35,298 bases of DNA from Reclinomonas americana ATCC 50394. Taxonomy: Eukaryota. This document shows positions 1,254-31,038 of the stretch, one piece after another. Each line of letters begins with the position of its first letter. Within the stretch, counting starts at the first letter, position 1. The translations under genes and the position numbers were made by a program. The notes under the pieces are model-generated. The model saw only the letters and a list, made by a program, of their open reading frames with translations, searched no databases and was not told the DNA's origin. Where the stretch lies: positions 62,001-97,298 of the forward strand of contig PS015093.1 in assembly GCA_048213135.1 (NCBI GenBank), given 5' to 3'.

Positions 1254-1789
1254 TTATCTGGCGGGAGGGAGGGGTGCCAGGTGCATGGATTCGAGGGCGC
1301 GCATGGCCTCCTCCATGCTGCACACAAAAGATGAGTAGGTGTGGCAATACCGCACAGAGCTACAAACAACGTACGTTGGTCTCTGGGTCGGGTCGTATTG
1401 CAGACAGTGGACCATGAGCTGAATGAAATCAGGCGGCAGCATGGTTCCGCTCTCCTTGTCGGCCAGTTGTCGCATGCGCTCGCGTGACACACTGAGTGCC
1501 AGGGTACCTGCGCGTCTGTTTGCGTAAGTGATCGAGAAGCGACGAGGTTACAAGACAAGCGAGGGACGCACCGACTGCCAGCTGATGCAACACTGACATG
1601 GGATTGAGATCGGTGAACGGGCGTTGCTGGTGGGCGAGTTCCCACAGGACCACGCCGAAACTCCACACATCGGCTGCGAGAAAGGGGGCAAGTGAGGCAG
1701 AGGGTCTCGCACCTGCTTCCGAATGCAGAATTCCCAGCCTCCTGGCGCTTCCAGTCCCGCTCCTTGCCTGTCTCTTTTCCAGTAACTGC

Positions 1790-1824
<35 letters not shown>

Positions 1825-4800
1825 NNNNNNNNNNNNNNNNNNNNNNNNNNNNNNNNNNNNNNNNNNNNNNNNNNNNNNNNNNNNNNNNNNNNNNNNNNNN
1901 NNNNNNNNNNNNNNNNNNNNNNNNNNNNNNNNNNNNNNNNNNTCCTCCCTCCTTCCTCCCTCCCTTCCCTCCCTTCCCTTCCTCCCTCTCTCCCTCTCTC
2001 CCTCCTTCCCTTCCCCCTCCCTCCCTCTCCCTCCCTACTCCTCCTTCCCCTTTATCCCCCTTTATCTCCCCCTTCCCCTCGACCACCCTCCCTTCCCCTT
2101 TATCTCCCCTTATCTCCCCCCTTCCCCTCCATGGCCACCACCCACCTGGGTATCCCCCGCCACCACCCCCCAGCACATCAGCAGGTTCGGATGCCTCAAC
2201 GACGCCATCAGCCGCACCTCTCCGGCAAACGAGCGCACCGCCTCATCTTCTTCAAAGGACGGCGCGTTGCCAAAGGCCCTGTGAATGGACATGTCAGCGT
2301 TCGCCTCAAGAGCAGAGAAGAGAAGAGAAGAGTCTGCAAACCACGGCGCTCGGAAGCTCTTGACGGCCACCTGCAGACCTCGCCACACGCCGAGGTACAC
2401 ATCGCCGAAAGAGCCGGCGCCGACTCGTCGCACAAACTGAATGTCGTCGGAGCGGATGATCTGGATGCGTGCGTCGCCCGGCCCGAAGCGCGAGTCGAGG
2501 TCCGGGTCGGGGGAGGTGATGTAGCGCACGAACAGCGAGTGGCCCTCGACGGGTCGCGGCGAGGCGCCGGCCTCGCTGTTGGTGCTGAGATACACGCGAC
2601 CGGAGGGCAGCAGTGGCTGCTTCTCCTCGTGCACGATCTGCTGCTGACTTTCCTCCACCATGAACAGGAAGGTGAGGAAGAAGCTGCTCGGGGGGATCAA
2701 ATGATGAGACGAGAGACTCGGGCGACAAGGAGGAGCGATGAACGCACAATGTGGTCAACATATCAGCCGACTGCGGTACGTGAAGAGGGGACGTGTGAGG
2801 TACAGCTGGGGAAGCTCAGCATGCATCAACTGCTCACCATGTAAACGCAGTCGAGGGCATTCTTGTGTCCAGTCTGCGAGGAGAGCACGGTGAGCCACGC
2901 GAACATCGTGGAGAGATAAAGAGAGGGAGAGACAGACAGACACAGACAAGAAGGAGAAAGAGAGACGGCGGGAGACAGAGAGAGAGAGAGAGAGCACGAG
3001 AGAGAGAGAGAGAGAGTAGTGAGCACGAGCAGTGCCTAGTTTGCCTTATTGCCGATNNNNNNNNNNNNNNNNNNNNNNNNNNNNNNNNNNNNNNNNNNNN
3101 NNNNNNNNNNNNNNNNNNNNNNNNNNNNNNNNNNNNNNNNNNNNNNNNNNNNNNNNNNNNNNNNNNNNNNNNNNNNNNNNNNNNNNNNNNNNNNNNNNNN
3201 NNNNNNNNNNNNNNNNNNNNNNNNNNNNNNNNNNNNNNNNNNNNNNNNNNNNNNNNNNNNNNNNNNNNNNNNNNNNNNNNNNNNNNNNNNNNNNNNNNNN
3301 NNNNNNNNNNNNNNNNNNNNNNNNNNNNNNNNNNNNNNNNNNNNNNNNNNNNNNNNNNNNNNNNNNNNNNNNNNNNNNNNNNNNNNNNNNNNNNNNNNNN
3401 NNNNNNNNNNNNNNNNNNNNNNNNNNNNNNNNNNNNNNNNNNNNNNNNNNNNNNNNNNNNNNNNNNNNNNNNNNNNNNNNNNNNNNNNNNNNNNNNNNNN
3501 NNNNNNNNNNNNNNNNNNNNNNNNNNNNNNNNNNNNNNNNNNNNNNNNNNNNNNNNNNNNNNNNNNNNNNNNNNNNNNNNNNNNNNNNNNNNNNNNNNNN
3601 NNNNNNNNNNNNNNNNNNNNNNNNNNNNNNNNNNNNNNNNNNNNNNNNNNNNNNNNNNNNNNNNNNNNNNNNNNNNNNNNNNNNNNNNNNNNNNNNNNNN
3701 NNNNNNNNNNNNNNNNNNNNNNNNNNNNNNNNNNNNNNNNNNNNNNNNNNNNNNNNNNNNNNNNNNNNNNNNNNNNNNNNNNNNNNNNNNNNNNNNNNNN
3801 NNNNNNNNNNNNNNNNNNNNNAGAGAGCACGAGAGAGAGAGAGAGAGAGTAGTGAGCACGAGCAGTGCCAGTTTGCCTTATTGCCGATGCCAAAATCGCT
3901 GGTAAAGAGCAGGCCAAACTTGCAAAACACCAGCGCGCTGCAGCAGAGCTCCCAGATGCCACTCTTCGTCAGCAGCGCATTGATGGCCGCCACTCCGCCA
4001 AGCGCGACACCAACTCCGTCCAACCCATAGAATATGATCGAGTACTGCGGTTCATCGGCCACAGTCTACACACAGTAGAGGTCGGTGGCCAGCGGCAACA
4101 AAGCACAACACGTGAACCGAACGAACGAACCAGCGCCAGTGTGCCCACCACCATCATGATGGTGCCGACAATTGAGTTAATGACCCACGGCCGGTGCAGC
4201 GACGAGATGCCGAGACAGCACAGACAGCTGACACGCGAGCGCGGTCGGTTGTGCGTGATCAGTGCCGCTCCAACGTACCCAAACAAAAAGTACTGCCACG
4301 ACACAATAAGCAAGAAGGAAACACGGCCTTCAGCTTTTTCTCCTCGAGTCTCACATCAGCAGCATCCAAGGCAGAGAAGGCCGGGTAACCATGGTCACTA
4401 ATGATCCTGTGCATCAAGTATAAGACACAGAGACACGCGCGCAGTAAGAGCAGAGAAAGAGTCAGAAAATCCGACCTTCCGAACGCCATCAACACGAGGA
4501 TCACGGCCGATAGAACAAGAAACGTCATGTGCTCTGTGAGCAGAGAGCAAGAGTGAGCATTACAGAAGAGAGCATGCACCTCACCACCTCACCAGTGCGC
4601 AGAGGTATCCTGCGTCCTTTGGTCACATGTCGTCGTTGCCACAATGCCTGCATGCGACCAGTCATCAGTCACAATGTGAAGCTCACACAATGTAAACTGC
4701 CGCACCAGAACGCCCATCAGCAACGTCTCCGCGAGCAACCCCGAGCCAGAGATGACGCCAGCCAAGGTATGCGAGAACGGAGATTTCTTTGTGACAACGT

Positions 4801-4912
4801 CGAGCATAAGAAGTTGCATTGTGAACACCACAGGAGGAGGAATGCAGAGGAGGCTCACCACTACAATAGTGAGCGCATTGACACACCACCCATCGTCTCC
4901 ACTGAGTGCCAT
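1254..4912 (-). CDS. Seven-transmembrane (GPCR-like) protein fused to a C-terminal TKL/MAP3K-like kinase; central kinase exons missing at the N-gap
   Basis: Exons 4912-4859, 4786-4706, 4647-4593, 4533-4476, 4406-4390, 4327-4131, 4065-3877, 2873-2838, 2770-2748 and 2683-2146 splice in frame. They give 7 hydrophobic segments followed by VGAGSFGDVYLGVWRGLQVAVK and EVRLMASLRHPNL. After the gap, exons from 1785 give ADVWSFGVVLWEL and CLQYDPTQRPT, with stop at 1254. The kinase call is near certain; the fusion relies on a GC donor at 3876. Confidence 0.75.
2874..3876 (-). other. Putative GC-AG intron (AAG|GCAAAC ... CTCAC ... CGCAG); true length probably about 170 nt because the N-gap looks spurious
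   Basis: This phase-0 GC donor keeps DFGIGNK in frame with TGHKNALDCVYM. The nearest GT (TC|GTGCTC) leads to a stop in the 23-nt micro-exon. Confidence 0.55.
2989..3888. repeat. About 67-nt direct duplication on both sides of an N-gap (2989-3056 vs 3822-3888); probable assembly overlap
   Basis: AGAGAGCACGAG(AG)nTAGTGAGCACGAGCAGTGCC(T)AGTTTGCCTTATTGCCGAT abuts both gap edges and differs by a 1-nt indel. Confidence 0.85.
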
Positions 4913-4975
4913 TGTGCGCAGTCTTCGTGGGTCCTGTGTGACACAGTCTTCTTTCCGTCATATTGTCAACAGTCC

Positions 4976-7356
4976 ATGCGCAGAGTGCTGCTTCTGTTAC
5001 TGCTTTTGGCAGTCACAGTACGCGCACAAGGTCCCTTGCCTCCACTGCACATCAACCTTCCATCACGCCACTCACTCTCCCATTTGCAGAGTTGCTCACA
5101 GATCAACATTTGCACACTCACACTGACTGGTCATCGTCGTCTTCTCCGCGTGTGCGCACTGGTGACTTGTGGTTGCTCCGCGAACGCATCCCCGACGCAT
5201 CTGGAGTGGAAGCATTCCTCTTTGATGCGGATGAGACGCACAAGTCATTCGCGCTCTCGTTGAATGGCTTTGACTGGTTGCAGGATGCTGGTACGAGTGT
5301 CTCTGCTGGTGATGCTGTTACATAACGCATGTTGAGAGCTTCTCTCGTGTGTCTACAGTGGCAGAGGCTGTGGAGAAAGAGAAGCTGGGCCTCGGAGCGT
5401 TGCATATGACGGTGTATGTCATGCGGAAGAAATTTGAAGATGAAGGCGTGATGCCTGAGTTGTCGTCGATGAAGGTGCGTGTGACGACTGAGATGCTTTG
5501 TTGCGCCGTGTTGCGTGACTGGGAGACAGACGGCTGCACCGGGAGTTCGCACTGCGGGCAAGCGACCGGTGGTGCCGAGGCGCACGGTGGGACTGTTTGT
5601 GGATGGTCGCGTGCATACGTTGTTGGTGGAGGCTGATGGCTCGGATGTGGAGGCTGCTGGTGCGTGCGCGCAAGGGTGATGATGTTTTTTTCGTGTGACT
5701 GATAGCCTCACGTTGTCGTCGGCCAGTGGCCAAGTTCGTGTCGACCAGGACGATTGAGAAGGAATTCGTGCCGGCAATGGTGCACGCTGTGCGTATGCAG
5801 CTGGAGGCACACGATCCGGAGGTACGTCACTCTTTCCACTGTCTTGTTGCGCTGTCTCACACGTTCGTACACCACAGCCGTCGCAGTTGCCGTACAGCAT
5901 GGCCCGCATGCAGTATCTCCGCAAGGGCTTTGTGGTGCCTCTCACCGAGCCCGCCATTGTCGAGGAGAATCCGGTGGTGGTCATGGTGGATGCGCTGCGT
6001 AACCACGTGGGCGTGCTTGGTGCGTTGTCGCCCTGCCTTCCCTCCCCTTCCCTCCCCTTTCCCTCCCCTTTCCCCCCTTTCCCTCCCCCTTCCCTCCCCC
6101 TTCCCTCCCCTTCCCTCCCCTTCCCTCATCCACTGCTTTGCCTGACACTTGATGGCAGCCGACGACCCGCGAAAGCCTTCGTACCGCTGCTCCTTTATTC
6201 AGCATCCGTTCCCCCAGAGGAAGAAATGTGCGCCGCTGATTGCCGCTGCACGCAAGTGGGTGGAGAACAATGTGGAGGTGCATCTCCACATCACTTCCCT
6301 CCTCGCCTCAGTTCACTCCTCTCATCGCCTGTGATGCAGCGTGTCGCCACACACTTCCTGCCCCCGCCGCCACCCACATCGGAACCGCCACCCCTGCCGC
6401 CACCGCCACCACGCAGTCCCTACTTTATCGGTTCCGACACCATGTCGGGCGCCGAACTTGCCGCGCTTTCCGCCGGCGTGCGCAGCGTCGGCCGTGTGCG
6501 CCCGTGGGAGTGCTCGTACCGCAACGGACTGAAGGAGAGCACCGGTCGCAACGAGCCGTCGGCTCCCGAAGACAACCTCGCCAGCTCCTTGTTTGTCAAG
6601 TCGCAGCCACGGCCCGTCGTTGGCCAGCTGGCCACGATCGTGCTCGGCGTGTTCTCCATGGACGACAAGGAGGCGCAGCGTGACGACTTGCGCGAGACGT
6701 GGATGCGATACCCCAATGTGTATCACCGCACGCGCAACCCCGAGGGCTCGGTGCAGGTGGTGTTCGTGTTGGGCCGGCCGCGCAACGCGGAGCTGGCCAG
6801 CCGGTTGCGTGCCGAGCAGGAGAAACACGGCGACCTGTTCTTCTTGGACATTCGGGAGAACGTGAACGCCGGCAAGATGCACGACTGGCTGTCGTCCGCC
6901 GCGGATCACTTCCGCGGCACGAACGTGCGCTACGTGGGCAAGTGCGACCACGATGCCTTTGTGCGCACCGTGCAGCTGGAGCGCGAGTTGTCCAAGCTGC
7001 CGCGTGAGCGGCTGTACTGGGGTGCCTCGCTCGTCGGCTATCGGGACGGCGTGGCGCTGGACTACATCATCTCCTTCACCAACCTGCTGTCGTGGGATCT
7101 GGTGGAGTGGCTGCGCCGTGCACCGCTGGGCAGTCTCGAGCACCTCGGCAACGACGACTGCGCCACGGGCTCATGGTTCGCCATGGAGAACTTGCCGGTG
7201 CACATGGTGGGCGACAGCCGCTTCCACGACTACCTCGGCAAGCTGCTGGCCATCATTCCCGAACCGCTCAGCGAGCAGACAATCGCCGTGCACCGCGTTG
7301 ACAGCCGCGACTTGCTGGATCTTCTCATGCGCCAGTACCCGTCAGAAGACGAATAA
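4976..7356 (+). CDS. GT31-family (beta-1,3-galactosyltransferase-like) glycosyltransferase, copy 1, 8 exons, signal peptide
   Basis: MRRVLLLLLLLAVTVRAQ signal peptide; 7 GT-AG introns; Pro-rich linker; GT31 motifs RDDLRETW, VVFVLG, LRAEQEKHGDLFFLDIREN, YVGKCDHDAFV (DxD), LYWG, NDDCATG. Confidence 0.85.
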
Positions 7357-7467: not shown

Positions 7468-9863
7468 ATGCCACGCACGCAGTCAATGCCGCTTCTGCTG
7501 CTGCTACTGCTAATCACCGCAGTATGCGCACACGATGGTACGATGCACACGCACAGTGTTCGCGCGCTTTCTTACACACACTCTCTCTCTCACACACACA
7601 GCGACTCACACTCACGAGAATGATCACACACCACCGCGCCCACCATCGCCATCGTGGACACTGTCAACAGGGTCATCGTCATCGGCCAGACAACGTGTGG
7701 GCGACATGTGGTTGCTGCGTGAGAAGGGATCGCACATTCCGGGCTTCACTCTCACTGTGTACGATGCGGACGAGAAGTTCAAGACCATTCCCATTCCCTA
7801 CGCTGGCTTTGTGTGGTTCGAGGACGCAGGTGAGGGAGTGAGTGAGAGTGAGAGAGTGAGAAGATCGCGCGAAAAGCCAGCTTACCATTCCTCCGAATGG
7901 CATGCAGTGGTGGATGCGATCACCAAGGCAAATGCAGGCTTCAATGCTGCTCATGCGGGACTGATGGTGTGTCGGCAGCTCACTGCGCGAGACGGCGTGT
8001 GGCCGGAGCCTGCGCAGCTCAATGTTGCGCGTACACGTGCTTGTTTTCGTCCGCTGAGTTGTCTGTTGACTTTTGTTGTGCAGGCGGTGGCACCGGGAGT
8101 TCGCACCTCGGGGAAGCGTCCGGCTGTACCGCGGAGGAGAGTGGGTCTCTTTGTGGACGGCCGTGTGCGCATCTTGTCGGTGCGAGTGGACGGTCGGGAT
8201 GTGAACGAAGTCGGTATGTATGTCTCCTGTTGTTTTCCTCTCTTGTCTCTTCCGCTCACTCGTGTTGTCGGCAGTGTCGTCGTTTGCGTCGGCGAATGCG
8301 ATCGAGTCGGTGTTTGTGCCTGCCATGGCACTCGCAGTGCATCGTCAGCTGCAGACAAACGCCGAAGAGGTTCTGTTGCACGGCATCGGTTTTCTCAAGC
8401 GTGAGAATTCATCTCACATCGCTGCGCGTGTTGCAGCCCCTGGATGTGCCTATCGGCATGTCCCGCCTCCAGCACCTCCGCAAGGGCTTCGTGGTGCCTC
8501 TCACCGAGCCCGAGGAGGCCGTTCAGCACCCAGTGGTGGTGATGGTCGGCGCCTTTCACCACGATGTGAACACTCTTGGTGCGTCCACTTGTCTCCTGTT
8601 TGTCACTCCTCTCCCTCACACTCCGTCGTGTGTTTGTTTGCAGCCGACGACCCACTGCAGCCGTCGTTTCGTTGCACGTTCATCCGACACCCTTTTCAGG
8701 AGAGGAGCAGATGCGCACCTCTCATCGCTGCAGCGCGCTCGTGGATCGCGGCGAATGCAGAGGTTCGCACTCATATCCTCCCTCTTTATCCCTCTCACCC
8801 TCTCGTGCCTCACCCGCCCATGACACTGCAGCGGGTCGCCATTCACTTTCTGCCTCCACCACCACCCACCCTGGAGCCGCCACCATTACCGCCACCGCCA
8901 CCACGCAGTCCTTACTTTGTCGGCTCGGACACCATGACTGGCGCCCAGCTGCTGGCACTTGCCACCAGCGGCCACCCGAACGTGGGTCGCATACGACCGT
9001 GGCGGTGCTCGTTCCAGACCTTTGATGGCTTCACGGGGCACGCTGAGCGAACCCGCTACACCGTGTCGGATCCCGAAGACAACGTCTTCAGCTCCATGTT
9101 TGTCAAGTCGCAGCCACGACCCGTGGTTGGGCGGATGGCCACCATTGTGTTGGGGGTGTTCTCCATGGATGAACGGGAGGCGCAGCGTGACGACGTGCGC
9201 CAGACGTGGATGCGATACCCCAACGTGTATCACCGCACGCGCAACCCGAGTGGCTCCGTACAAGTGGTATTCGTGCTGGGCCGACCGCGCAACGCGACTG
9301 TGGCTCGACGGTTACGTGCGGAGCAGGAGAGACACGGCGATCTGTTCTTTGTGGACATTCTCGAAAACCTCAACTCTGGCAAGATGCACGACTTTCTCGT
9401 GGCGGCAGCGGATCACTTCCGCGGAGCAAATGTGCGCTACGTGGGCAAAGTTGACCATGATGCCTTTGTGCGCACCGTGCAGCTGGAGCGTGAGCTGTCC
9501 AAGCTGCCACGCGAAAGACTCTACTGGGGGCCAGGACTGGTGGCGTACCGTGACGGAGTGGCTCTGGACTACACAGTGAGCTTCATCAACCTGCTGTCGT
9601 GGGATCTGGTGGAGTGGGTGCGACAGGCACCGTTGGGCAGCCTGGAGCACTTGGGACTCGACGACTGCACACTGGGTTCGTGGTTTGCTACGGAAAATGT
9701 TCCGGTGCACTTTGTGGGCGACAGCCGCTTCCACGATCTGTTCGGCGCCGCCGACGCCATCATCTCGGAGCGACTGACAGAGGAGAGCATCGCGGTGCAC
9801 CGCGTGCACACTGGTGACATGCTGCGGCTGTTCATGCGCCAGTTTCCACCCGACGACGAGTAA
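7468..9863 (+). CDS. GT31-family glycosyltransferase, copy 2, 8 exons, signal peptide
   Basis: MPRTQSMPLLLLLLLITAVCA signal (alternative ATG at 7486); the same 7 intron positions as copy 1; motifs RDDVRQTW, YVGKVDHDAFV, LDDCTLG. Confidence 0.85.
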
Positions 9864-9922: not shown

Positions 9923-12316
9923 ATGCGACGAGTGCTCCCACTTGTGTTGCTTGTGCTGCTGCTGGTCACTGCTGCCTGTGCACACCAAGGTGGGGTGTTC
10001 ACACGCGCCCATACACGGAAGAGCATGCAAGATTTTCACTCTCACAAACATGCATGCAGCAACTCACACTCGTGAAGAGAGTCGCACATCATCACCACCA
10101 GCGCCACCACCTCGACCACCGCCGACGTGGACATTGTCGACGCCGGCACCAGAGGGCGACACATGGCTGCCTTCCGAGTCAATAGGCTTCAATCTCATTG
10201 TGCACGACACGGACGAGGAGGAGCGCACGATCTTCATCCATATGCGGGCTTCACGTGGTTCGAGGATGCAGGTGCGACATGGGGGAGTGGAAGTGAGGGG
10301 GCGGGGAGTGAGTTGACATGCTTTTTGTTTTTGGTGTCTGTGTTGATATCAAGTGCGCTTGCACACACAACACAGTGTTGGATGCTGTCAGCAAGGCCGA
10401 GATGGGATTCGGCGCCGCTCAGCAGGGACTGGGATTGTGTCGGCGGCTCACTGCAGAGGAAGGCTCGATGCCGAAGCCTTCACAACTTGGTGTTACGTGC
10501 CTGTGATGCGCGCGTGGCGTGAATGCTACTGCTGACTTTGTTGTGCGCAGGCGGTGGCCCCGGGAGTTCGTGCGTCGGGGAAACGACCGGCTGTACCACT
10601 GCGCAGAGTGGGTCTCCTTGTGGACGGCCGTGTGCGCGTCTTGTCGGTGCGAGTGGACGGTCGTGATGTGAACGAAGTCGGTGCGTGCGTCTGTGTTGTC
10701 CTCTCTTGTGTTCTCATCCTCACTCGCTGTGTGTTGACGACAGTGTCGTCGTTTGTGTCGGCGAATGCAATCGAGTCGGTGTTTGTGCCGGCCATGGCAA
10801 TGGCAGTGCACCACCAGCTGCAGACGAACACCGAAGAGGTTTGCGTTCATCGTCGTTCACTGCTGGTATCGCCTTGCTGAACGTGCGTTTGTGTTTAGCC
10901 ATTGGAGGCACCGTACAGCATGGCCCGCATGCAGTACCTCCGCAAGGGCTTCGTGGTGCCTCTCACCGAGCCCGAGTTGGCCGTTCAGCATCCGGTGGTG
11001 GTGATGGTCGGCGCCTACCACCACCATGTGGACTTGCTTGGTACGCGTCCACTCGACTCTCTCATCCCCATTCTCTCCCTCCCCTCACACTCTTGCCTGT
11101 GCTTGTTGGCAGCCGACGACCCGCTGCAGCCGTCGTTCCGCTGCTCACTCATTGGGCGCCCCTTCCCGGAGCGGAAACGATGTGCGCCGTTGATTGCCGC
11201 CGCACGCAAGTGGATCGAGAACAACGTGGAGGTACGTGAGACGTTCCCTCAGCTCCCCCCTCCTTCCCTTCTCACACGTTGACAATGGCGCTGCAGCACG
11301 TCTTCACGCACTTCCTGCCTCCACCACCACCCACGCTTGAGCCGCCACCACTGCCGCCGCCACCACCACGCAGTCCCTACTTTGTCGGCTCGGACAGTAT
11401 GACTGGCGCCCAACTGCTGGCGCTCGCCGACAGCGGCCACCCGAACGTGGGTCGCGTACGACCGTGGGTGTGCTCGTACCGCACCATCGATGGTTTCACC
11501 GTGCATCGCTACACTGGACTGGCCCCCCAAGACAACGTCTTCAGCTCCCTGTTTGTCAAGTCACAGCCACGCCCGGTTGCTGGTCGACTGGCCACCATTG
11601 TGTTGGGTGTGTTCTCCATGGATGAGAACGAGGCGGATCGTGACGATGTGCGCGAGACGTGGATGCGCTACCCCAATGTGTATCACCGCACGTACAACCC
11701 AGAAGGCTCGGTGCAGGTGGTGTTCGTGTTGGGCAGACCTCGCAATGCGGATCTGGCCCGACGGCTGCGTGCCGAGCAGGAGAAACACGGCGATCTGTTC
11801 TTCTTGGACATTCTCGAGAACATGAGCTCCGGCAAGATGCACGACTTCCTCGCCGCGTCGGCCGATCACTTCCGCGGCACGAATGTGCGCTACGTGGGCA
11901 AGGCCGATCACGACGCCTTTGTGCGCACCGTGCAGCTGGAGCGCGAGCTGTCGAAGCTGCCGCGTGAGCGGCTGTACTGGGGACCGGGATTGGTGGCGTA
12001 CCGCGACGGAGTGGCTGTGGAGTATGCGGTCAGCTTTTTGAACCTGCTGTCGTGGGACTTGGTGGAGTGGGTGCGCCGCGTGCCGCTGGGCAGCCTGGAG
12101 CACCTGGGACTCGACGACTGCACGCTGGGTTCGTGGTTCGCGATGGAGAATGTGCCGGTGCACTTTGTGGGCGACGCCCGCTTCCACGATCTATTCGGCG
12201 CCACCGATGCCCTCGTCGAGGCGCGGCTGACCGAGAGGAGCCTCGCGGTGCATCGCGTGCGCGGCGGCGACATGCTGCGTCTGTTCATGCGCCAGTTTCC
12301 GCCGGAGGATGAGTGA
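9923..12316 (+). CDS. GT31-family glycosyltransferase, copy 3; 1-nt deletion in exon 2 (pseudogene or sequencing error)
   Basis: MRRVLPLVLLVLLLVTAACA signal (in-frame ATG also at 9917); same intron positions. ATC-CA-TAT at 10236-10243 corresponds to ATT-CCC-TAC (IPY) in copy 2. The catalytic exon is intact (YVGKADHDAFV). Confidence 0.8.
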
Positions 12317-12826: not shown

Positions 12827-14446
12827 ATGAGTGTCAAGTTCAACTGGGCACGGCTGAGCTCCACTGCCACGAGTGTGGAGCTCACCAACACTCTGAACAC
12901 ATTTTTCGCCGCTCAACAGCAACAACAGTCGACTTGGCCTTCCTTTCTGGGAGCCGTTCGTGTGACCGATCTCTCTCTCGGTCCGGTGAGTCACACATAC
13001 ACACACACACACACTCACACACGCATAGTGAGGGAGTCAAGAGTCGGAGAGTGAGAGAGAGGCGCGCGTGTGTGTGCGCGCGTGTGTGATGTCGTCAATG
13101 CTCGTCCTTTCAAACCGTTGTGTTGTCTGCCTTTGTNNNNNNNNNNNNNNNNNNNNNNNNNNNNNNNNNNNNNNNNNNNNNNNNNNNNNNNNNNNNNNNN
13201 NNNNNNNNNNNNNNNNNNNNNNNNNNNNNNNNNNNNNNNNNNNNNNNNNNNNNNNNNNNNNNNNNNNNNNNNNNNNNNNNNNNNNNNNNNNNNNNNNNNN
13301 NNNNNNNNNNNNNNGTGTGTGTGCATGTGAACGATTTGTAAGAGAACCGGAGGGAGAGCAGTATATTATCGTTGGTGGATTCCTTCTCGCGCGCGCGCGC
13401 GGGCATCAGGATTCACGCGCGCGGTTATGAGATGCTCATTCTCGCATCTTTCTCGTGTTCAGGATGCTCCGACGGTGCAGCTGATGAACATCTCTGGCGC
13501 GACGCCTCCCATGTGCCACGCACGCACTCGCGCATTGGAGGATCGGAATGGCGGGTTGCGCTCACTGGCCTCGATCAAGAGACCNNNNNNNNNNNNNNNN
13601 NNNNAGCACCGCCGGCTGCTGTCCGCGCGCCGGCGGCAGTGGCGGCGGCGGCGGCTGGGCGACCGGCAGCACGTCTCCCGCCAAGACCACATGCGCGGTC
13701 ACAGCAACAACAACAACAGCACCATTACATGCAGCAGCACGCGGCTGCAATGGCGATGATGTCGCGGCGATTGGTCGATGAAGACGATAGTGATAGTATG
13801 GCTGAGGTCGATGTGGGCCTGCGTGGTCCGGTGCGGCTCGTGTCGTCGCGCTCCGCGTCGAGTTTGAATGACTTGCACTCGGGTCCGCCGTTGACGCCCA
13901 CCAGCTCGGACAAGTCGGCGGTGAGCGATGCGGACTCGATGTCGCTGGGCTCGAGTGATTCCATGTATGGTGATTCGCGGCCGGCCACGCCCACGCCGCT
14001 GTCGGAGCTGGGAGGCGCTGCTTCTTCGTCTTCTACAACGACGACGACGACGACGACGACTACCCCGCACTCAAGGCATCCCTCGGCGTCGGCCTCCAAC
14101 GCGGGCTGGTCGCAGCTGGCCGGCTCGCTGGCGTGCATGTCGGCGTTCTCGATGCCGGGCATGATGCCGACCCGTTCGCGAGTGTCGCGTGCCGATGCGC
14201 GTGAGAACGTGCAGGCCAGCATTGCGTTGCGCTGGCTGTCACAGCTCTCGTTCAGTCTCGAGACGGAGCTGGTGCTGTTGAATGAGCCTGTGCCGCGCTT
14301 CTTGACGCTGCCGCTCCGCATCACCGTCTCCAAATTGTACCTGTGCGGTCGGCTCGAGGTTGCTCGGAGTCGCACGCACCTGTCCATGTACTTTCACCGC
14401 GCCAAGGACCCAGTTGCGTTGTACTCTCTCTCTCTCTCGCCCACCA

Positions 14447-14477
<31 letters not shown>

Positions 14478-14911
14478 ACGTACTACTACTACTACGTACT
14501 ACTACTACTACTNNNNNNNNNNNNNNNNNNNNNNNNNNNNNNNNNNNNNNNNNNNNNNNNNNNNNNNNNNNNNNNNNNNNNNNNNNNNNNNNNNNNNNNN
14601 NNNNNNNNNNNNNNNNNNNNNNNNNNNNNNNNNNNNNNNNNNNNNNNNNNNNNNNNNNNNNNNNNNNNNNNNNNNNNNNNNNNNNNNNNNNNNNNNNNNN
14701 NNNNNNNNNNNNNNNNNNNNNNNNNNNNNNNNNNNNNNNNNNNNNNNNNNNNNNNNNNNNNNNNNNNNNNNNNNNNNNNNNNNNNNNNNNNNNNNNNNNN
14801 NNNNNNNNNNNNNNNNNNNNNNNNNNNNNNNNNCGTACGTCGTACGTCGTACGTCGTCGTCGTCGTCGTCGTCGTACGTCGTACGTCGTACGTCTCGTCT
14901 CGTCTCGTCTC

Positions 14912-19000: not shown

Positions 19001-22000
19001 CGGCGGCGAGAGTGAGAAGCGACCGAAAAAAAGAAACAAAGGGAAAAACACACGAACCCAGACTCCAGGTACGGCAGCAGACCATCGACGAGCGGTTTCA
19101 GCGCACCGTCAGCGACAAACACAACCCACGGATTGGATGCCAGCAGGCGAGCAAGCGACTGCGGCGCTGCGGAGGACTCCGACGACAGCGGCGGCGGCGG
19201 AGGGGGCGAGCACAGCAGCGGGATGAGAGAGGCGACGGCAAAGGCTGAGGTCGGAGTGGAAGCTGCGTGCTGCACCAGCCACGTGCACACACTGCATGCA
19301 TGCATTAGTCAGTGGCAATGATCACGTCAGAGTGGTGTCGTTTCACGGATCGTCAACTCACCGCGACAGCGACAGTGGGTGTCTGCACATGGTCAGCATT
19401 GCATTCACGATGCGCAGGACGCAAGTGGCCAGCTGCAGGTGTGGATTCACAGGCTCTGGCGGATCCCACGATGGTCGCACCGCGTGCAACGACACCCACA
19501 ACGGTGCCTGACGTTCACTCTCCGACACGCCAGAATATTCGTCGTCAAACAAATTGCGAAGATCAAGAGCGAAGCCGGCAGCAATCCACTCGGGCGGCAC
19601 CGCCTCGTGCTCGACGACAAACATGTACAGCTGTCGACAGCCGTGTGAGAAATCGCACATATTTGCACGCAACAGGACGGGCACAGACAGACAATCACAC
19701 CTCCAACATCATGTCCACAAAGTGGTCGAGGCAAGCGGTCGACTGCAGACGCTCTAGCAAGCTGTAGGCAGTGTTCGTGATCAACACCGCAGTGTCAAAC
19801 CAAAACATTTGGTCCTGCATTGACAAAAAAAAAAGGTATGTGAGTGGCAACTCGCCACACTAGCGCCCCCGGACGAGAATCATCAANNNNNNNNNNNNNN
19901 NNNNNNNNNNNNNNNNNNNNNNNNNNNNNNNNNNNNNNNNNNNNNNNNNNNNNNNNNNNNNNNNNNNNNNNNNNNNNNNNNNNNNNNNNNNNNNNNNNNN
20001 NNNNNNNNNNNNNNNNNNNNNNNNNNNNNNNNNNNNNNNNNNNNNNNNNNNNNNNNNNNNNNNNNNNNNNNNNNNNNNNNNNNNNNNNNNNNNNNNNNNN
20101 NNNNNNNCGCAAGAGCGCACCAGCACTGGCACTTCGCGCTGCACCGAGGCCAATGCACAGTGCCGAATGATGCACACCATTGTGGCAGTGAGCGTGGCCA
20201 TTAGTGTGCCACGCAGTACAGGTGGAATCGGCGGCATCGATATGAAAACATCGGCACCGCTGGCAGCTCCGGAAGTCTTCCAGGCCTCGCTCGTCAGCTC
20301 GCTGTTGACAACCATGCCAAGAATCGACATGTCTGCCAGCGCAAACTCAAGCAACTGCAGACAAAAGTAACAAGAGTGAGTCAGATATGTGAGACAAGAA
20401 AACACGCCGGTCACGTCACGTCAGCACCTTGACACCCAGGCGGATCATCTTGACACGCAGCAGTGTCGACTGAATCCTCGGAGCCAACTGGTCGATGATC
20501 AGTGGCTCACCAACGCCCGTTGTCGTCGACACTTCGGCGAGCCACGATACCAAACCGGTGACCTGTGGGAAGTGAGTTACATAGGCCAGGGTGTGAGCGA
20601 GAGGGAGAGGAGAAATGAGAAGGGAGAGGGAGAGAGGACGATAACGAGAGAGAAAGGAAGGGAGGGAGAGGAAGAGAGGAAGAAAGGGAGAGAGAGGGGG
20701 AGAAGTGTGCGTGCTTCGAGAGAGATTAGAGCACGCAACTCCGTCCGATTCCAGCACTCGCAACGGCGCCAACAATGCCGTCAAAGTGCGTACCGCCACT
20801 GGATGACAGAAACAGAAATCAACAACAGGATAAGGAACTCATTTTGCCGGCACAGAGCGCAGCGCGCATGTCAAACCATTGCTCGTGTCCATGGCTTTCT
20901 GCTCAATGCTGGCGAGAATGACCTTGGAGAAGCACGCAAAGAGTGTAATGGAAGCGAGGTCGTCGAGCACTGCCTGTACCAGGAAGCACGCAGCGTCGGC
21001 CTGTGCGCACACACATGCGATGAGCGGCTGCTATCATCGAAAGAGCAGAGAAAAAAGGAGGAGACAATTTGACGCAACAAGTCGCGCCTCACATCCGTGC
21101 TGCAGCAGCTGGTGACCGGCGGTGGCCGCGGCTGGCGACGTCGGCGAAAGAAGGGGCTTGTTGTGAATCGAGGCCACCATGCGGCACACCGCGTGCATGG
21201 CCTGCGGATGGGCGAAAAAGGTCTGCACGACCACCTGATGGCCACACTGCGACTCGCTGATTTCACACAACACGTGAATCTCCGACTCCACAATGCTGAG
21301 CGACTGACGCGTGGGCGCCTTGCGATCGGAGCAGCTCGCGGGCGGGAAGCCAGCCACACGATCGACACATCGATTGCGCGCCTCCTCACCCAGCACCACT
21401 CGCAGCTGGCGGGTAACGGTGAATGCGGCGAGGTGGGAGCGAATCTGCACCATCAGTTGCGCCGCCAGCAGCCACTGCAGCTCTCGCACTTCCAGCACCT
21501 CCAGCGGATCCACCGACAGCTCTTGCGGCTCCGGCACGCCGTGCATGGTCTCCATCAGTCGATGCAGGGAGGGTCGATTGCACAATAGCCATGCAAGGCT
21601 GCGGTGGAGAAGGACAAAGAAGATGAGACAGAGGTGACATATGCTTCGCAAGAAAACAGCAAGACACGCAACTGCATGGTACTGCCAGGTCCCTCGTCCC
21701 CAGCGGCCGGCTCACCAGACAAGCTGACGCGCAATTGACGCGCTCGAGGGTGCGCCGCGAGACTTGCGCTGGCATCGGCCGACGACAACACCATGTTCAA
21801 CACACGCAATGCCCGTCGCGACCACTGATTGTTGCCAATGATGCCCGGCAACTCGACCATCAGGTCCACAAGCGAGGAAGACTGCGCGGCGCCCGTGTAC
21901 AGCAGCGAACGACTCACACAACGCCGAATTCGCGCAGCACTCGTTTCATCGCCCCAGTCGGCCATGTGTGCGGCGGCCGTCCAGCCTCGTGCGCCAATGG

Positions 22001-25000
22001 CACACCGCGTCCACAAGCGCGGATCCGGCTGCGAATACAACGAAGAGAGAGAGAGAGAGAGAGAGAGAGTGAGAATATGCGGTCTGCAGAATCGCGAACA
22101 CAGCATGCACACCTCGCCCCCGTCTCGACGCGGCAGAGCCACGGTCTGCGGGTTTGGCGGCACGGAGAGTACGGTTCGTCCGAGAGCAGATGGCGCAAAG
22201 ATGGCCCGCAGTTGCTCCAGATGCGAATACGTGTGCTCAATGTCACCGACGGGGCGCAGACTCGTCACCACCGTGCCAAACACTGCAATTTCTGCACTCA
22301 TCGATTGCGCCAGTTCCTGCAGGGAAGCAAGTGTCAGCCACATTTCTGAAAAGTCACATGAACACACACACACACAAGACCTTCAGCGCTCCGTCAATCG
22401 CGGACATGAAGGGAGCCATGCGGATCAATGCCACGGCCTGCTCGTAATCCATCTGGCTCATGATGGCATGCACCGCCGCCCACAACTCCGTCAAAAAGTG
22501 CGTCTGATCCAGCAACCGCGAGCGGTCCATTACTGCACGCACGCATCGCACATGAGCACACGCGCGATACCACGTAACGAGAGGGAGACAAACACAAACA
22601 CACACACAACGCAACAGATCGTGACGGCACAGAGGAGGGCGTCGGATCGGAAGCGCGGAAGCAGAAGCGCCAAACGCGCGTAATAACTCCATTCCGCGCT
22701 CTCATCGGAGCGTGGCCACGGAGCGCTCCATTCCTCACGTGGTCGCTGTCGAACAAACGAGCGATAGACCGCCGGGTGCACAACTATCGCCTCCGCCAGT
22801 ACTGCCAGCTCGCGGACACACGAAGCCACGGAAATGAAGCGACTCAACGGTCGTCTGCCTGCACCGTCACCCATTTTCTCGTCGGTGCCATCGTCCTCGT
22901 TGTCGTGCTCATCGTCATCATCATCACCACCGTACGCATCCAATATCCACTGGCACAGCGCGTGCACTAGCCGGTCTCCAATTGTCGTGGCCAGCGATTG
23001 CAGGCCGGCCACTTCTGCACCTCGTGCCTCGTCATCAAACAGTGCCTCGAGCACGGCCAGCACCAGACGTGTGGCCGTCACGAAGCGCGCGTCAAACGCA
23101 GTAACACGATCCCACGACGGTCGTGGTACCTCACCACCTGCACCGTCAGCGTCAACACCGTCGTCTTCTTCCTCCCGCAGGTTTCCCAAATCACCGCCGA
23201 ATCCCTCCTCTAGAACGTAAAGCGACGCGTCCACGGCATCGTTAACCAGCGATGCCGACAACGCCTGCAGTCGAATACCGAGATACCGACACTCCTCTAC
23301 CACAGTCACCATTCTTCGCAACTCTTCCGTCGTCCAAAAACTGTGACCTCGCGTCATTTCGTCACCGTCACTCAACATGGACACATCCCCCTCTCCTCGT
23401 TCTTCCTGACTCCGTGTCGCTGGATGCGATCTCGTCAACTCTGTCACCACCTTGTAGACCTCTGTAGAAAGAGCAGTCAGCGGAACCACCGCTCGTCCGT
23501 CCCACAGCGCCTCCTGGCGCCGCCACATGGCATCTTCCTCGAGCAGTGTTGCCATCTCAATCACTTCGACATTCTCCTGCGCGGCGTCATCGTCGGCAGG
23601 GTCCGACGTGTTGGTGGCGACCGACATGTTGTCGCCACGCGGCGCACCATCGTCACCACCACCAGTACCCTCCTCGTCCTCGTCGTCGTCGTCGTCATTG
23701 ACACCCGTCATTCGAGTTACCGCAGAGGCAGTCGTAGTGCGAGATCGTGAACCAGTAGGTTCGTGAGCGGGCGGAGTGGTAACAACTGGCGGCACCGCAC
23801 GACTGGCAGTATCGGCCGACGGAAGCACAGCGACTCCATGTGACGGCAGTGGCCGCTTCTCTCGCACGGGTTTCGGGCGCGCCGGCGGGATCTCGTCGAG
23901 ATCAGGAGGCTCGGGTGTCGAGTGCGCCGAGTTACGGTCCCAGTCACCGTTACTGCCGGGAGCAGAGGAAGAAGAAGAGGTGGCAGGAACCACGACCACT
24001 CCACTCTTCGCCGTCTGTGCCGACGACTCCGACGAGAGATCAACAGTCACTCCGTGACGACGGTGCTGCTGCTGCTGTTGCTGTGATTGTCGCCCGGCAG
24101 CAAGAGGCGGAGGCGGTGGTGTGGAGACACCGCTGGCCGCTGCAGTAGGCGACCGATCTGTAACCGCCTGTGAACGATTGAAACGCTGCCGTCGTCGCTC
24201 CAGTCGTTGCATGTCATCCAGAGCGCCGTCGAACTCCAACGAAGACGACGAGAAATCCAGATGCGCACCACTTCCACCGCTGGAGCCACGCTTGCCGTGC
24301 AGAGCCCGTGCCGTCGTTGGAGACACCGGCGTCACTGGTGTATCGGGTGGACCCTGCGTTGCGGAGGTTGCTTGCGGACTGTTCATGACAGCTGCTGCTG
24401 CTGCCGCAGCCGCCGCCGCCGCCGCCTCGCCTCCCGTCTGCGCCACATACGGCGTTCCCCACACACACAGAGTCAATGCCGTAAACGCACCCCGTACCAC
24501 CAAGTGCTCCGTCACAATCTGCAACGAGGGACATCATGCATGTGAGAGACAGATTCGATGTGACATGCAACGATGTGCACACACACACACCTCATCAGCG
24601 ACGAAAAAGTCGCAGTGCTGCTGCTGACCGGCAAACTCGCACGTGTGCTGATCGCCACTACCACCATCTCCATCACCGTCAGTGCGAATGCGCACAGGCA
24701 GCATGCCAGCCTCGACCTCCGAAACCTGCATGCATTGGCATGTCATGGAAAGTCACACACACACAGCATCTCTCCCGCTGTCGCTCACTCACCGGTGCCG
24801 ACACCGCCGCGGCTGCAGTGAGCGGCTGATAGAAGACAGTGAACGAGAAGCGATCCGGCTGCGTCGCCCCCACGTGCGTCTGCAGTCGCGGATGCGCGGC
24901 GGCGCCCAGAGGAACCACCTGCAGGCGTTCGACGCGCACCGCCTTTTGGAATCGCACGCCTTCCACTCGCACAGCAGGCGGAGTCACACCGCCATCACCT

Positions 25001-28411: not shown

Positions 28412-31038
28412 TCACCACGGTGCACCGTCTGTCAGTGAATCCAGTAGAATGTCCATTGGCGCCCGCTCCACCGCCGGTGGTGGTGGTGGCGCGGCACTGC
28501 TCCCGCCCTTTCTTGTTGCACCCGTCCCCGGCGCAGTGGCAGCACTGCTCCGCTGCGCTGCGGCCACCTGCCGCTGTCGCTTCCACGCATGCTTCATCCA
28601 CTTTTCCGTGGCCTGGATCGCGTCAAACTCGGTGCTGCTGGCCTCGGAGCGGGCGGTGGTGGCACTGAGCGACGGTCGCTCGCCAGTTGCCACAGCCGAC
28701 AGGCGCATCGGCGAGCCAGTCAGCGGACCGCCGACCATGGCGGGCGCCGGTGTCACCGCCAGTGACGCACCTCGATCGTCGACCCGGAACAAATCGTCGG
28801 AGAGATCGTCATCGTCCACCTCCTCATCTTCATCGTCGTCATCTTCCTCCTCCTCCTCCTCATCCTCTTCGTCCTCGGCCTCCTCCTCCCCCTCATCACC
28901 ATCGTCGCCGACGACACCGTCCTCTTGCCGACCGGGACGCCGCACATCACTTCGGTCGTCGTCCGTGCCAGTCGACACACTCTCGTCGTCGCTCGGCTGC
29001 GGAAATATAGAAGTGAGACGCACAAACACACACAAAGAAACCCCAACAAGACAGCTTCCTCACCTCTAGCACTTCGATATCGCTTCCGGCAGCACCTCCA
29101 CCGCCGAGGCCACCCCACCCGCTGGCGGACTCGGGCAGCGCCACTGCCATACCGTCCAGCAAGTCTCCCATCAGACCCATCCCTCCGCCGCCGCCTCCGC
29201 CACCACCACCACCACCGTCGTCATCAAGTTGCAGGATTGGCAACTGCGCCGGGTGAACGGGAAGTGGATCGGTGAAGAAATAATCGTGCTGCAGAGCCTC
29301 GCTGGCCGTGATGCGCCGCGCCGGATCGTACACCAACAGGCGAGACAGCAGCGCCAGCGCACCGGGGGTGGCACGTGGCACAAGTGACTGTGCGCGACAC
29401 AGTGAGGAAAAGTCGGCAAGGAAAGCAAAAAGAGGGCCCGTCACACCTCCAACGGCAGCGCCGACATGTCGGGAAACGAGATCTTGTTGTAGTCCGGCAG
29501 CTCCTCCAAGCCGGGCCAATTGTGTGCGTCGGGTGTGCCGAGTGCGGAAATCACTCGCTGCAGCTGATCAATGTCACTCTCGCCGGCAAACAGCGGCGCA
29601 TGATTGAGCATCTCGGCCATGATGCAGCCGACGCTCCACATGTCCGCCGAGTAATCGTAGTGGCGCGAGCCAAACAGCAACTCGGGCGCACGGTACCAGC
29701 GTGTGGCCACCTGATGACTGTACGGTCGATCGGCCGCGTTGCCGCCAAACACGCGCGCCAGACCAAAGTCGGCCAATTTGAGCACACCGGAGCGCGACAG
29801 CAGCATGTTGGCCGGCTTCACATCGCGGTGCATAATGTGCTGTGCGTGGCAGTGCGCCAGTCCACGCAGCATCATCACCAGCAGGCATTTCATCTCGCCC
29901 TCGGTCAGCAGGCGCGGGAGGCGGTGCACGAGGTGGTGCAGGTCGGTGTGCATGAACTCAAAGACCATGGTTAGCTCGGATCCGTTGACGAAGACGTCGT
30001 ACATGGGGACCACCTGGGGGAGGGAAAGGGGGTAAGGGGGAGGAAAGGGGGAGGAAAGGGGGAAGAAAGGGAGAAGGGCGAAAAGAGGGAAGGGTGGGGA
30101 AAGGGGAGGGGGAAGGGGGAAGGGTGAGGAGAAGAGAGGAGAGGAGAGGGTGAAGGAGAAGGTGAAGGAGGAGGAGAAGAGAGGAGAGGGCAAGGGAGAG
30201 AGATTGGAGAGGAGAGGGCAAGGGAGAGAGATTGGAGAGGAGAGGAGAGGAGAGGAGAGGGTGAAGACAAAGGCGAAGGAGAAGGTGAAGGAGAGGAGAA
30301 GGTGAAGGAAAAGAGTGAAGGGTACAGGGGGAACAGGAAGAGGGAAGGGAGACTGAGAACGTCGACGTGAAGTGAGAATGAGAAAAGGAAGAGACTGTAG
30401 GGGAGAGACAGCAGGAGGAGAAGAGGAGAGGAGAGAAGAGTAGAGGAAAGGAGAAGGTGAAGGCGAGGAGAGGGCGAAGGGGAATGGAAGAGGGAGACTG
30501 AGAACGTCGACAAGAAGTGAGAATGAGGAAAGGAAGAGACTGAAGGGGAGAGCGGAGGACTGACAGAGAGGACAGAGAGACAACAGACAGACAGGGACGA
30601 GGAGAGACAGCAGGAGGAGAAGAGGAGAGAGGAGAGGGCGAATGGAAGAGGGAGGGGAGGGGAGACTGAGAACGTCGACGAGAAGTGAGACAGAGGAGAG
30701 GATGCTCCCAAGGGGAGAGAGGAAGACACACAGAAAGACAGCAGAGGGGGAGAAGAGCAGGGAGGGGAGTTACCCAAATTCCTCAACATTCTCATGCGAC
30801 AACTGCTGCAACGACTGCATCTCACGCAGCGCATTCGTCGGATTCCGGTCGGGTGTCTTGCGCAGTCGCACACACTTGAGCGCCACAGTGCTCCCAGTGG
30901 GAATATGCCGCGCTTTCAACACCACACCAAAAGTCCCTTCAAAAAGAACGACACAGACATGAGAGAGTGAGAAAAAACGCACGCAAGCGAGGAGAGCAGA
31001 CCTTCGCCAATGCGCCCAAGTGTCGTATACTCTTCCAT
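28412..31038 (-). CDS. CDK20: Cyclin-dependent kinase 20 (CCRK/LF2-like), 5 exons, with long acidic C-terminal extension
   Basis: MEEYTTLGRIGEGTFGVVLKA, PTNALREM, HRDVKPANML, LKLADFGLARVF, RPYSHQVATRWYRAPELLFGSR, WPGLEELPDYNKISF, HDYFFTDPLP. The YSHQVATRWYR and LPDYNKISF motifs are CDK20-typical. Confidence 0.9.
30014..30787 (-). repeat. Expanded CDK20 intron 2: polypyrimidine (sense) low-complexity tract with three imperfect tandem units of about 145-170 nt
   Basis: GACTGAGAACGTCGAC..AAGTGAGA recurs at about 30351, 30496 and 30664 on the + strand. Confidence 0.85.

Follow-up and report, generated by a model that had tools for sequence, protein, structure and literature searches.

A candidate membrane-kinase fusion gene with an orphan multi-pass domain in Reclinomonas americana

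Does the minus strand of this locus encode one protein in which a multi-pass membrane region is joined to a signalling kinase, or do the two parts belong to separate genes? The locus lies in a 35,298-nucleotide stretch of the Reclinomonas americana ATCC 50394 assembly (contig PS015093.1, positions 62,001 to 97,298; referred to here as the window), and an earlier note had proposed that micro-exons join a seven-transmembrane (7TM) region to a TKL kinase within it. A few protist groups are already known to combine a multi-pass membrane region with a kinase. According to PMC1420674, the kinase domains of Dictyostelium 7TMK1 and 7TMK2 are joined to seven segments that span the membrane, with 7TMK1 placed in the TKL group; PMC5784254 and PMC6033456 describe the oomycete GPCR-TKL proteins, or 'GPCR-bigrams', a family with 17 members in Phytophthora infestans in which a DEP domain follows the kinase in about half of the proteins. 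Both precedents had been named in the earlier note, and these sources agree with it. A third example, the GPCR-TKL/K family of acanthoecid choanoflagellates, carries a TKL or other kinase C-terminal to a 7TM domain; that 7TM domain groups with none of the other GPCR families, from which the authors infer that fusion has occurred repeatedly and independently (PMC12716839). For the present locus, we give an even chance, judged from sequence, that it encodes a seven- or eight-segment membrane protein joined to a signalling kinase.

From the ATG at 4912 to a stop at 1254, an open minus-strand reading can be threaded, although two N gaps interrupt the locus. Nine exons between 4912 and 2146 splice to a stop-free reading of 440 codons, and the kinase C-terminus and stop codon are supplied by exons at 1673-1572, 1507-1375 and 1317-1254, the last ending in TAA (1256-1254). 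The short introns of the model are 57-69 nt long and all have GT...AG ends. Exon 1 (4706-4912, minus strand as for all exons below; ATG 4912-4910) encodes a hydrophobic segment at residues 14-32, designated H0, together with H1, exon 2 (4593-4647) the K/R-rich H1-H2 loop with 6 K+R, exon 3 (4476-4533) H2, exon 4 (4355-4406) a loop, exon 5 (4131-4292) H3 and H4, and exon 6 (3877-4065) H5 and H6, terminating in GNK and followed by GCAAAC. Five successive GT-AG introns of 58-69 nt with pyrimidine-rich 3' halves separate these membrane exons, those flanking exon 2 being GTGCGG...CAG (58 nt) and GTGAGG...CAG (59 nt). Two micro-exons follow, of 36 nt (2838-2873; acceptor CTCGCAG/, donor /GTGAGC, with slashes marking splice sites) and 23 nt (2748-2770), and then exon 9 (2146-2683; donor GTGGGT), in which the last hydrophobic segment ends and a linker of ~70 residues leads to the kinase N-lobe. 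Neither an Rfam nor a tRNA scan of the window returned anything. Elsewhere in the window, the CDK20 gene contains a CT-rich intron of ~770 nt, a precedent for long introns of this kind, and the best full-length matches to its exon, at 59% identity, are spread over many eukaryotic groups. An Atlas search with an Era-like ORF pointed to no informative taxon.

All seven hydrophobic segments named in the earlier note are present, but the count is less settled than it appeared. A Kyte-Doolittle scan finds eight segments in the splice variant proposed there, and seven clear ones plus a weak third in the alternative variant. The additional segment is H0, which lies N-terminal to the first of those previously named (Kyte-Doolittle 2.19) and may be a signal peptide or a signal anchor. 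The third segment as originally described requires donor CATG/GTTACC and acceptor GAAG/, with exon 4 ending at 4390 and exon 5 starting at 4327; this start gives an H3 of greater hydrophobicity, and the variant translates the pyrimidine tract of an alternative GTGAGA...CAG intron. Both versions of the intron are 62 nt long and both models have 440 residues. Because of this splice choice and the possible signal-peptide status of H0, the total is either seven or eight. Intron 3 (4475-4407, 69 nt) is also stop-free and in frame, and its retention may give one additional hydrophobic segment; codon statistics on these short disputed segments favoured neither outcome for intron 3 and neither version of the third segment. 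The K+R counts per loop are 6, 4 and 1 on the putative cytosolic side and 2, 1, 0 and 2 on the opposite side, a pattern that fits the positive-inside rule with the kinase predicted to be cytosolic, and this placement holds only if the last segment, encoded by the micro-exons, exists.

The membrane part could previously be assigned to no family, and the same outcome was obtained here: exon-by-exon Pfam scans, in which the pieces are only 54-69 residues long, gave no family match and no GPCR signature, nor did these pieces match any sequence of a solved structure. For exon 6, an Atlas search returned no usable match and a word-index protein search ('longer' lengths) returned none among 59 candidates at E<=1. 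A metagenome scan with exon 5 gave three loci with matches of 22-25 residues only. The matches at L001, which is in no plus-strand ORF of at least 80 aa, and at L003, which falls within a 636-aa membrane ORF under the bacterial code, were rejected as chance-like.

The stretch 3877-4957 has 9 hydrophobic 19-residue windows, whereas the median for 1.1 kb of the same strand is 2. Hydrophobicity alone is cheap in this genome, because CT-repeat intron DNA at 29.7-31.5 kb of the window yields 11-14 such windows per 1.1 kb. Spurious windows at up to this density (14 per 1.1 kb), plentiful open paths and the lack of homologues found for the membrane exons all accord with a reading in which the hydrophobic 'exons' are T-rich non-coding sequence threaded by permissive splice choices, and the kinase alone is real. 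We nonetheless consider this very improbable. The stretch 3877-4957 is not low-complexity, and the run of five consecutive introns with GT-AG ends, lengths of 58-69 nt and pyrimidine-rich 3' halves argues against it too. Exons 5 and 6 have codon-usage scores of +8.0 and +13.1 in the model frame (GC3 0.76 and 0.71, compared with 0.74 in the training set), whereas their other frames score -15 to -33. A gene on the opposite strand is without Pfam support, as plus-strand ORFs over 1945-5263 gave no Pfam match. A neighbouring minus-strand ORF at 5118-6125 gave none either. Across the nine exons of the N-terminal part the codon score is uniquely best in the model frame for seven, with one tie and one exception; exon 9 scores +46, exon 1 is best in the model frame yet negative (-7.9 versus -43.5 and -29.2), and for exon 2 the model frame is not favoured.

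The kinase that was proposed to follow the linker is visible only in part. Against PF07714, which outscores PF00069, its pieces give 28 bits (profile positions 1-38), 29.3 bits (184-216) and 13.3 bits (226-252). The translation of exon 9 contains a TKL/TK-like N-lobe, with a Gly-rich loop (GAGSFG), the beta3 Lys (VAVK), the alphaC Glu and a ~36-residue beta3-alphaC insert, and alignments of this lobe to TK/TKL structures and to database kinases span GAGSFG, VAVK and E-x-x-x-M-x-x-L-R-H-P-N. Subdomains IX and XI of the C-lobe are likewise present, the former (DVWSFG) in the exon at 1572-1673 (PF07714 positions 184-216) and the latter, with subdomain X, in the exon at 1375-1507 (positions 226-252). 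By tblastn, four of seven kinases match 1674-1570 and two of these four also match 1442-1356. The C-terminal exons match the kinase profile only, with no DEP domain; the stop codon, in the last exon (1254-1317), is 20 residues past subdomain XI, and the protein ends ~100 residues after subdomain IX. The intervening region is a GA-rich low-complexity stretch (1680-2145, minus strand) surrounding a 118-N gap (1825-1942) at the expected place of subdomains V-VIII (HRD, DFG, APE). This gap replaces ~113 residues that would extend from the hinge to APE and include HRD and DFG, the equivalent of P0131 residues 318-430, and for none of the seven query kinases did the HRD-DFG region align anywhere in 1254-2700, the position of the core being taken up by the N gap and its low-complexity flanks. 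The visible kinase consists of the N-lobe and subdomains IX-XI only, and the catalytic core is absent from the assembly.

Such a missing core could also mean that the locus is decayed or mis-assembled, its membrane and kinase pieces being remnants or wrongly joined (for example through collapsed haplotypes or a repeat-mediated scaffold join), with no intact fusion protein and a kinase core that is truly deleted. The presence of two N gaps within one 3.7-kb gene, both beside microsatellite-like CT or GA sequence, is in keeping with this, as are an indel between the two copies of a duplicated sequence flanking the other gap and the weak codon scores of exons 1 and 2. We think it unlikely, however, as the visible exons are stop-free and retain the Gly loop, VAVK, the alphaC Glu, DVWSFG and the subdomain XI Arg, and codon usage is clearly coding-like in exons 5, 6 and 9. 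There are also seven such gaps across the window, which argues that they are general to the assembly and not specific to this gene.

Intron 6 is the link of the membrane part to the kinase part, and it contains the other N gap of the locus, 765 Ns at 3057-3821. The flanks of this gap, 3888-3822 and 3056-2989, are duplicates (67 and 68 nt, with one indel) and include the last 12 nt of exon 6; because the flanks duplicate each other, this suggests a false gap between overlapping contig ends. When the gap is collapsed, 170 nt separate exon 6 from the 36-nt exon, and the membrane region and the TKL-like kinase are ~400 nt apart on the same strand and joinable in frame. The exons, splice signals and both micro-exons of the earlier note exist, but the junction that it drew crosses the N gap and uses a weak, non-canonical GC donor after GNK (AAG/GCAAAC), whereas all other inferred donors are GT. 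An in-frame junction is worthless as evidence, because 13,875 stop-free in-frame paths with one to three introns are available from exon 6 to the kinase exon (1,460 with GT donors only). Among these, the junction path first proposed ranks ninth by an ad-hoc splice score, and the top-ranked path runs on through the CT repeat with only one intron, of 154 nt.

Better support for the join comes from the charge pattern, from multi-pass kinases among the nearest kinase relatives, and from the short introns next to the kinase exon. The two introns around the 23-nt exon, of 67 and 64 nt, have donors GTGAGC and GTGCGT and both have CAG acceptors, and they form one of only nine strong tandem short-intron pairs in the 35-kb window, both strands included; shuffled sequence gives a mean of 0.84 such pairs per strand. 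The pair immediately precedes the kinase exon, whose frame it keeps, and the intron lengths match the 56-69 nt mode of the other introns, among them those of the homology-checked CDK20 gene. Strong pairs do arise falsely, since one of the nine sits inside the Pfam-matched kinase exon. Coding probably begins ahead of the first ATG in the kinase ORF, as all seven codons preceding that ATG end in G or C (training GC3 0.74).

These micro-exons could instead be the 5' exons of a separate kinase gene. The locus would then hold two adjacent genes on the same strand: a membrane protein of six to eight segments ending just past GNK or in the CT-rich stretch, and a TKL kinase starting either at a micro-exon ATG, with an N-terminal membrane anchor, or at MVEES, as a soluble protein. 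In the second flank copy an in-frame TAG two codons past GNK would terminate a membrane-only protein, the sole donor directly past GNK is the GC dinucleotide, and a kinase-only protein could begin from in-frame ATGs that occur where the 36-nt exon ends, inside the 23-nt exon or at MVEES in exon 9. However, the ~170 nt that lie between exon 6 and the 36-nt exon after collapse leave scant space for a 3' end and a promoter, and the good acceptor of the 36-nt exon (pyrimidine tract, CAG) would be superfluous for a first exon. A membrane protein without the last segment would moreover end outside the cell, and the charge pattern agrees with a single chain that has its kinase inside. We take two genes to be a serious possibility, albeit a somewhat improbable one.

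Database relatives bear on this choice in both directions. An exhaustive HMMER search with the kinase exon gave 665 matches at E<=0.001 (best 68 bits), with no coverage of the linker in that, among the matches listed, none begins before query residue 35. A word-index search with the kinase ORF ('longer' lengths) gave one match among 2,431 candidates, with 28% identity and labelled Rmarinus by EukProt, and a metagenome scan with the kinase exon gave 109 pattern matches, none of them confirmed. No orthologue or paralogue was found by the kinase exon HMMER search, the exon 6 word-index search or the metagenome scans. The lack of a linking homologue favours two genes, and the one-component receptor kinase of the earlier proposal is sustained by the same-strand parts that can be joined in frame, but not by any orthologue or paralogue in which they form one protein. 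Standing against two genes is the occurrence of multi-pass kinases among the closest kinase relatives: 10 of the 150 nearest, from 1.84 billion representatives, were selected by eye as having 4-7 hydrophobic segments immediately before the kinase.

P0042, P0051, P0019, P0111, P0013 and P0022 (Group I) and P0083 and P0096 (Group II) resemble the present locus in having 4-7 segments before a PF07714 kinase, and the linker of P0083 (~65 residues) is similar in length to that here. The kinase N-lobes of the multi-pass TKL relatives are 33-43% identical to the N-lobe here, whereas their membrane regions are without significant similarity to the membrane region here. With that region as query, phmmer reached E-values of 0.074 and 0.031 at best, both for P0008, which is outside the ten multi-pass kinases; comparison with the multi-pass kinases gave an hhalign probability of 0.1% and a best Smith-Waterman z-score of 2.7 in 10 tests. 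A motif that exon 6 and P0096 seemed by eye to share proved no better than chance (z 0.18). In the Protein Data Bank, the best N-lobe matches are MLK4 (4uya), CTR1 (3p86), CSK (3d7u) and BMPR1B (3mdy), with E-values of 7e-7 to 8e-6, although the alignments cover only the Gly loop through beta5 and the kinase here differs by its beta3-alphaC insert.

By description, the predicted protein would be like the oomycete GPCR-TKL proteins, with an N-terminal multi-pass (7TM) region, a C-terminal cytosolic TKL kinase and no extracellular ligand-binding domain; it differs from them in that no DEP domain or exon-level GPCR signature was found at the locus. It would similarly be like Dictyostelium 7TMK1 and 7TMK2 in combining a kinase with seven membrane-spanning segments, and like the acanthoecid GPCR-TKL/K proteins in placing a kinase C-terminal to a 7TM domain. 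The ~60% GC and 56-69-nt introns of the organism here are unlike Dictyostelium.

The explanation that we prefer is one multi-exon minus-strand gene running from 4912 to 1254 in a short-intron genome of ~60% GC. Its product would have a polytopic membrane domain of ~270 residues, made up of seven segments and an N-terminal eighth that is a possible signal peptide or anchor, and the last segment would lead through the ~70-residue linker to a cytosolic TKL-type protein kinase. The assembly of the gene would be broken twice, by a false gap in the junction intron and by a second gap that hides the kinase catalytic core. We suppose that the helix bundle would sense a stimulus, either a ligand or the state of the membrane, and change its conformation or oligomeric state, and that this change would switch the attached kinase to phosphorylate itself or cytosolic targets. 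Signalling would then be that of a one-component receptor kinase, with G proteins not necessarily involved. The locus plausibly adds an example to the known 7TM-TKL architecture, one whose membrane domain is an orphan, and on what the sequence offers we regard the chances of this as balanced. Only tentatively do we put forward, as a possible but rather doubtful proposition, that this is an independently evolved one-component receptor kinase, in which an orphan seven- or eight-helix sensor, for which 1.84-5.8 billion database proteins include no detectable relative, is linked through two micro-exons with a TKL kinase, in a lineage whose proteome is absent from public protein collections.

Given the assembly gaps and the thin support, the locus is a lead at most, and it carries a warning for this genome, in which CT-rich introns translate to convincing hydrophobic segments and open spliced paths are plentiful. 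Fusions of 7TM regions to kinases are a rare and functionally uncharacterised route by which a receptor is wired directly to phosphorylation. Another independent case, with an unrelated membrane domain and from a lineage not sampled before, would add weight to the idea that the architecture has originated repeatedly, and an independently evolved one-component receptor kinase at this locus, if true, would mean that the 7TM-kinase architecture arose independently once more.

An earlier note had read the minus strand from 4912 to 1254 as a seven-transmembrane (7TM) receptor fused to a TKL kinase, and we reproduced its spliced reading, in which nine exons give 440 stop-free codons. Six exons encode the membrane part (4912-4706, 4647-4593, 4533-4476, 4406-4355, 4292-4131 and 4065-3877), followed by micro-exons of 36 nt (2873-2838) and 23 nt (2770-2748) and the kinase N-lobe exon (2683-2146); three further minus-strand exons (1673-1572, 1507-1375 and 1317-1254) end the kinase, so that the reading runs from an ATG at 4912 to a stop at 1256-1254. 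The short introns are 58, 59, 69, 62, 65, 67, 64, 64 and about 57 nt long, the last two parting the C-terminal kinase exons. The reading we favour, at about even confidence, is a single gene in which a 7- or 8-pass membrane domain would be fused to a TKL kinase whose core is hidden in a gap.

The window is eukaryotic, with a GC content of about 60% outside gaps, and contains seven runs of N (1825-1942, 3057-3821, 13137-13314, 13585-13604, 14513-14833, 19887-20107 and 32881-33804); gap lengths vary, and the borders inspected are CT, GA or similar microsatellite-like repeats. Gene build was judged from two homology-checked genes, the kinase studied here and an orthologue of CDK20 (cell-cycle-related kinase; 29235-31038, minus strand), which has at least four exons in differing frames and GT-AG introns of about 60, 770 and 56 nt. 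Because the best database matches of CDK20 are only about 59% identical and spread over many groups, the host's proteins seem not to be represented in the collections that were searched. Elsewhere in the window, three tandem, closely similar long plus-strand ORFs (5758-7356, 8205-9863 and 11240-12316) each have a proline-rich N-terminal part and then a galactosyltransferase catalytic part, the PF01762 match (E 1.3e-9) having been scanned in the first only, and a similar upstream ORF segment seems to be repeated before each copy (4942-5325, 7514-8404). There are also a 307-codon plus-strand ORF resembling a mitochondrial Era-type GTPase (31311-32234; MMR_HSR1 family, Atlas feature score 0.97) and a 667-codon uninterrupted minus-strand ORF with many homopolymer runs of A, Q, S and D (22530-24533).

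Against the Pfam profile PF07714 the kinase pieces match positions 1-38, 184-216 and 226-252, scoring higher there than against PF00069; among solved structures, the N-lobe is closest to kinases of the TK and TKL groups, MLK4 and CTR1 for instance. Helix alphaC is set off from beta3 (VAVK) by an insert of about 36 residues (2230-2340, minus strand), and some database relatives, P0016 and P0104 among them, have an insert of like length there. From the donor of the N-lobe exon at 2145 to the acceptor of the subdomain IX exon at 1674, the assembly offers nothing but low-complexity, GA-rich sequence and a gap of 118 N. Each of the seven query kinases aligns to the N-lobe exon, and four also align to the exon at 1674-1570, but the hinge-HRD-DFG-APE region aligned near this gene in none of the seven, the HRD-DFG segments of five falling on CDK20 instead; about 113 kinase residues are therefore, judged from these alignments, probably missing from the assembly. 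The claim that a kinase follows the membrane part is thus half true: its N-lobe and C-terminal pieces are visible.

Hydrophobic stretches come cheaply in this genome: per 1.1 kb, 3877-4957 has 9 hydrophobic 19-residue windows and the CT-repeat intron of CDK20 (about 770 nt), which when translated mimics many hydrophobic segments, has 11-14, against a strand median of 2. The signals that carry weight are codon usage, tandem short introns and coding-like codons before the first ATG. A codon table trained on 2,199 codons of other ORFs in the window uniquely favours the model frame in seven of the nine exons, with one tie and one exon not favouring it, and scores highest for exons 5 (+8), 6 (+13) and 9 (+46). 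Tandem pairs of introns that fit a strict short pattern (GTG[AC]G, 55-70 nt, CAG) number only nine over the two strands of the window; one pair is exactly the introns around the 23-nt exon, and another, which falls within the kinase exon that matches Pfam, must be false. In the seven codons that precede the first ATG of the kinase ORF, the third base is always G or C. That the hydrophobic exons are non-coding is very improbable, and we give as little weight to all remaining unlisted readings together.

A 765-N gap (3057-3821) that went unmentioned in the earlier note lies in the intron between the membrane part and the micro-exons. Its flanks are one sequence (67 nt before and 68 nt after, with one indel), the final 12 nt of exon 6 included; read most simply, the ends of two contigs would overlap here and the gap would be false, and once it is collapsed the intron is CT-rich and 170 nt long. 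An in-frame TAG stands two codons past GNK in the flank copy after the gap and is absent from the copy before it. A decayed or mis-assembled locus is unlikely in our estimate. The donor proposed after GNK (AAG/GCAAAC) is of the GC type and matches poorly downstream; all other inferred donors begin with GT. On the collapsed sequence, with one, two or three introns of 45-260 nt and GT/GC-AG ends permitted, exon 6 joins the kinase exon in frame and without a stop along 13,875 paths (1,460 with GT donors only); the proposed path ranks ninth by a crude splice score, and the top-ranked has a single 154-nt intron with the CT repeat read through. Since open frames are this cheap, in-frame joinability is no evidence. 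A pair of neighbouring genes, the first encoding a membrane protein and the second a kinase that is membrane-anchored or soluble, is a possible, though less probable, reading.

Bearing on that alternative is the charge of the loops. By the positive-inside rule, loops rich in lysine and arginine lie in the cytosol. Counting from the first of the seven proposed segments, in the proposed splice variant, K+R number 6, 4 and 1 in the loops that follow segments 1, 3 and 5; they number 1, 0 and 2 in the alternate loops, and 2 in the loop preceding the first segment. This pattern puts the kinase on the cytosolic side if the last segment, encoded by the micro-exons, exists, and fits better with one chain than with two. 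The seven segments are present in that variant, but an eighth lies upstream at residues 14-32, and the third depends on splice choice, requiring the donor CATG/GTTACC and acceptor GAAG/. A competing intron (GTGAGA, pyrimidine tract, CAG) has better signals and swaps 11 hydrophobic for 11 polar residues, leaving the third segment weak; the two introns are equally long (62 nt), and codon statistics do not tell them apart. Intron 3 (69 nt) is stop-free and in frame, and if retained would add one more segment. With the N-terminal extra segment, the single-gene product would cross the membrane either eight times, its N-terminus lying inside, or seven times if the extra segment is cleaved off.

Searched exhaustively, the kinase exon brought up 665 proteins at E<=0.001, of which the highest-scoring reached only 68 bits; the last segment and early linker are uncovered, as none of the matches listed starts before query residue 35. 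Ten of the best 150 relatives, picked by eye, have four to seven hydrophobic segments immediately N-terminal to their kinase domain, and most fall into two sequence groups of unnamed multi-pass TKL kinases (P0042, P0051, P0019, P0111, P0013 and P0022; P0083 and P0096). The membrane parts of both groups have no Pfam family, save a weak Tmemb_40 match in P0096, and in P0013 a guanylate/adenylate cyclase domain is flanked by two kinase domains. None of the ten showed significant similarity to the membrane region here by phmmer (lowest E-values 0.074 and 0.031, both to P0008, a relative outside the ten), hhalign (probability 0.1%) or Smith-Waterman against shuffles (best z 2.7 in ten tests). Searched singly, the membrane exons had no Pfam, solved-structure, Atlas or word-index match, and a metagenome scan gave chance matches only; with pieces of just 54-69 residues, these negatives are weak.

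Such fusions had been said to occur in oomycetes, and two reports bear this out, describing GPCR-TKL 'bigram' families, 17 in P. infestans, about half with a DEP domain (PMC5784254, PMC6033456); no DEP domain follows the kinase here. A third describes a GPCR-TKL/K family in acanthoecid choanoflagellates, with a 7TM domain that groups with no other; its authors infer repeated independent fusions and state that no family member has been functionally characterised (PMC12716839). The locus would be like these families in how it works, and we do not claim membership by descent. The 7TM-kinase architecture is already known in three lineages, the third being that of Dictyostelium (7TMK1 and 7TMK2; PMC1420674). 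From such an architecture, if it is present in R. americana, we infer that the membrane domain would sense and the kinase switch.
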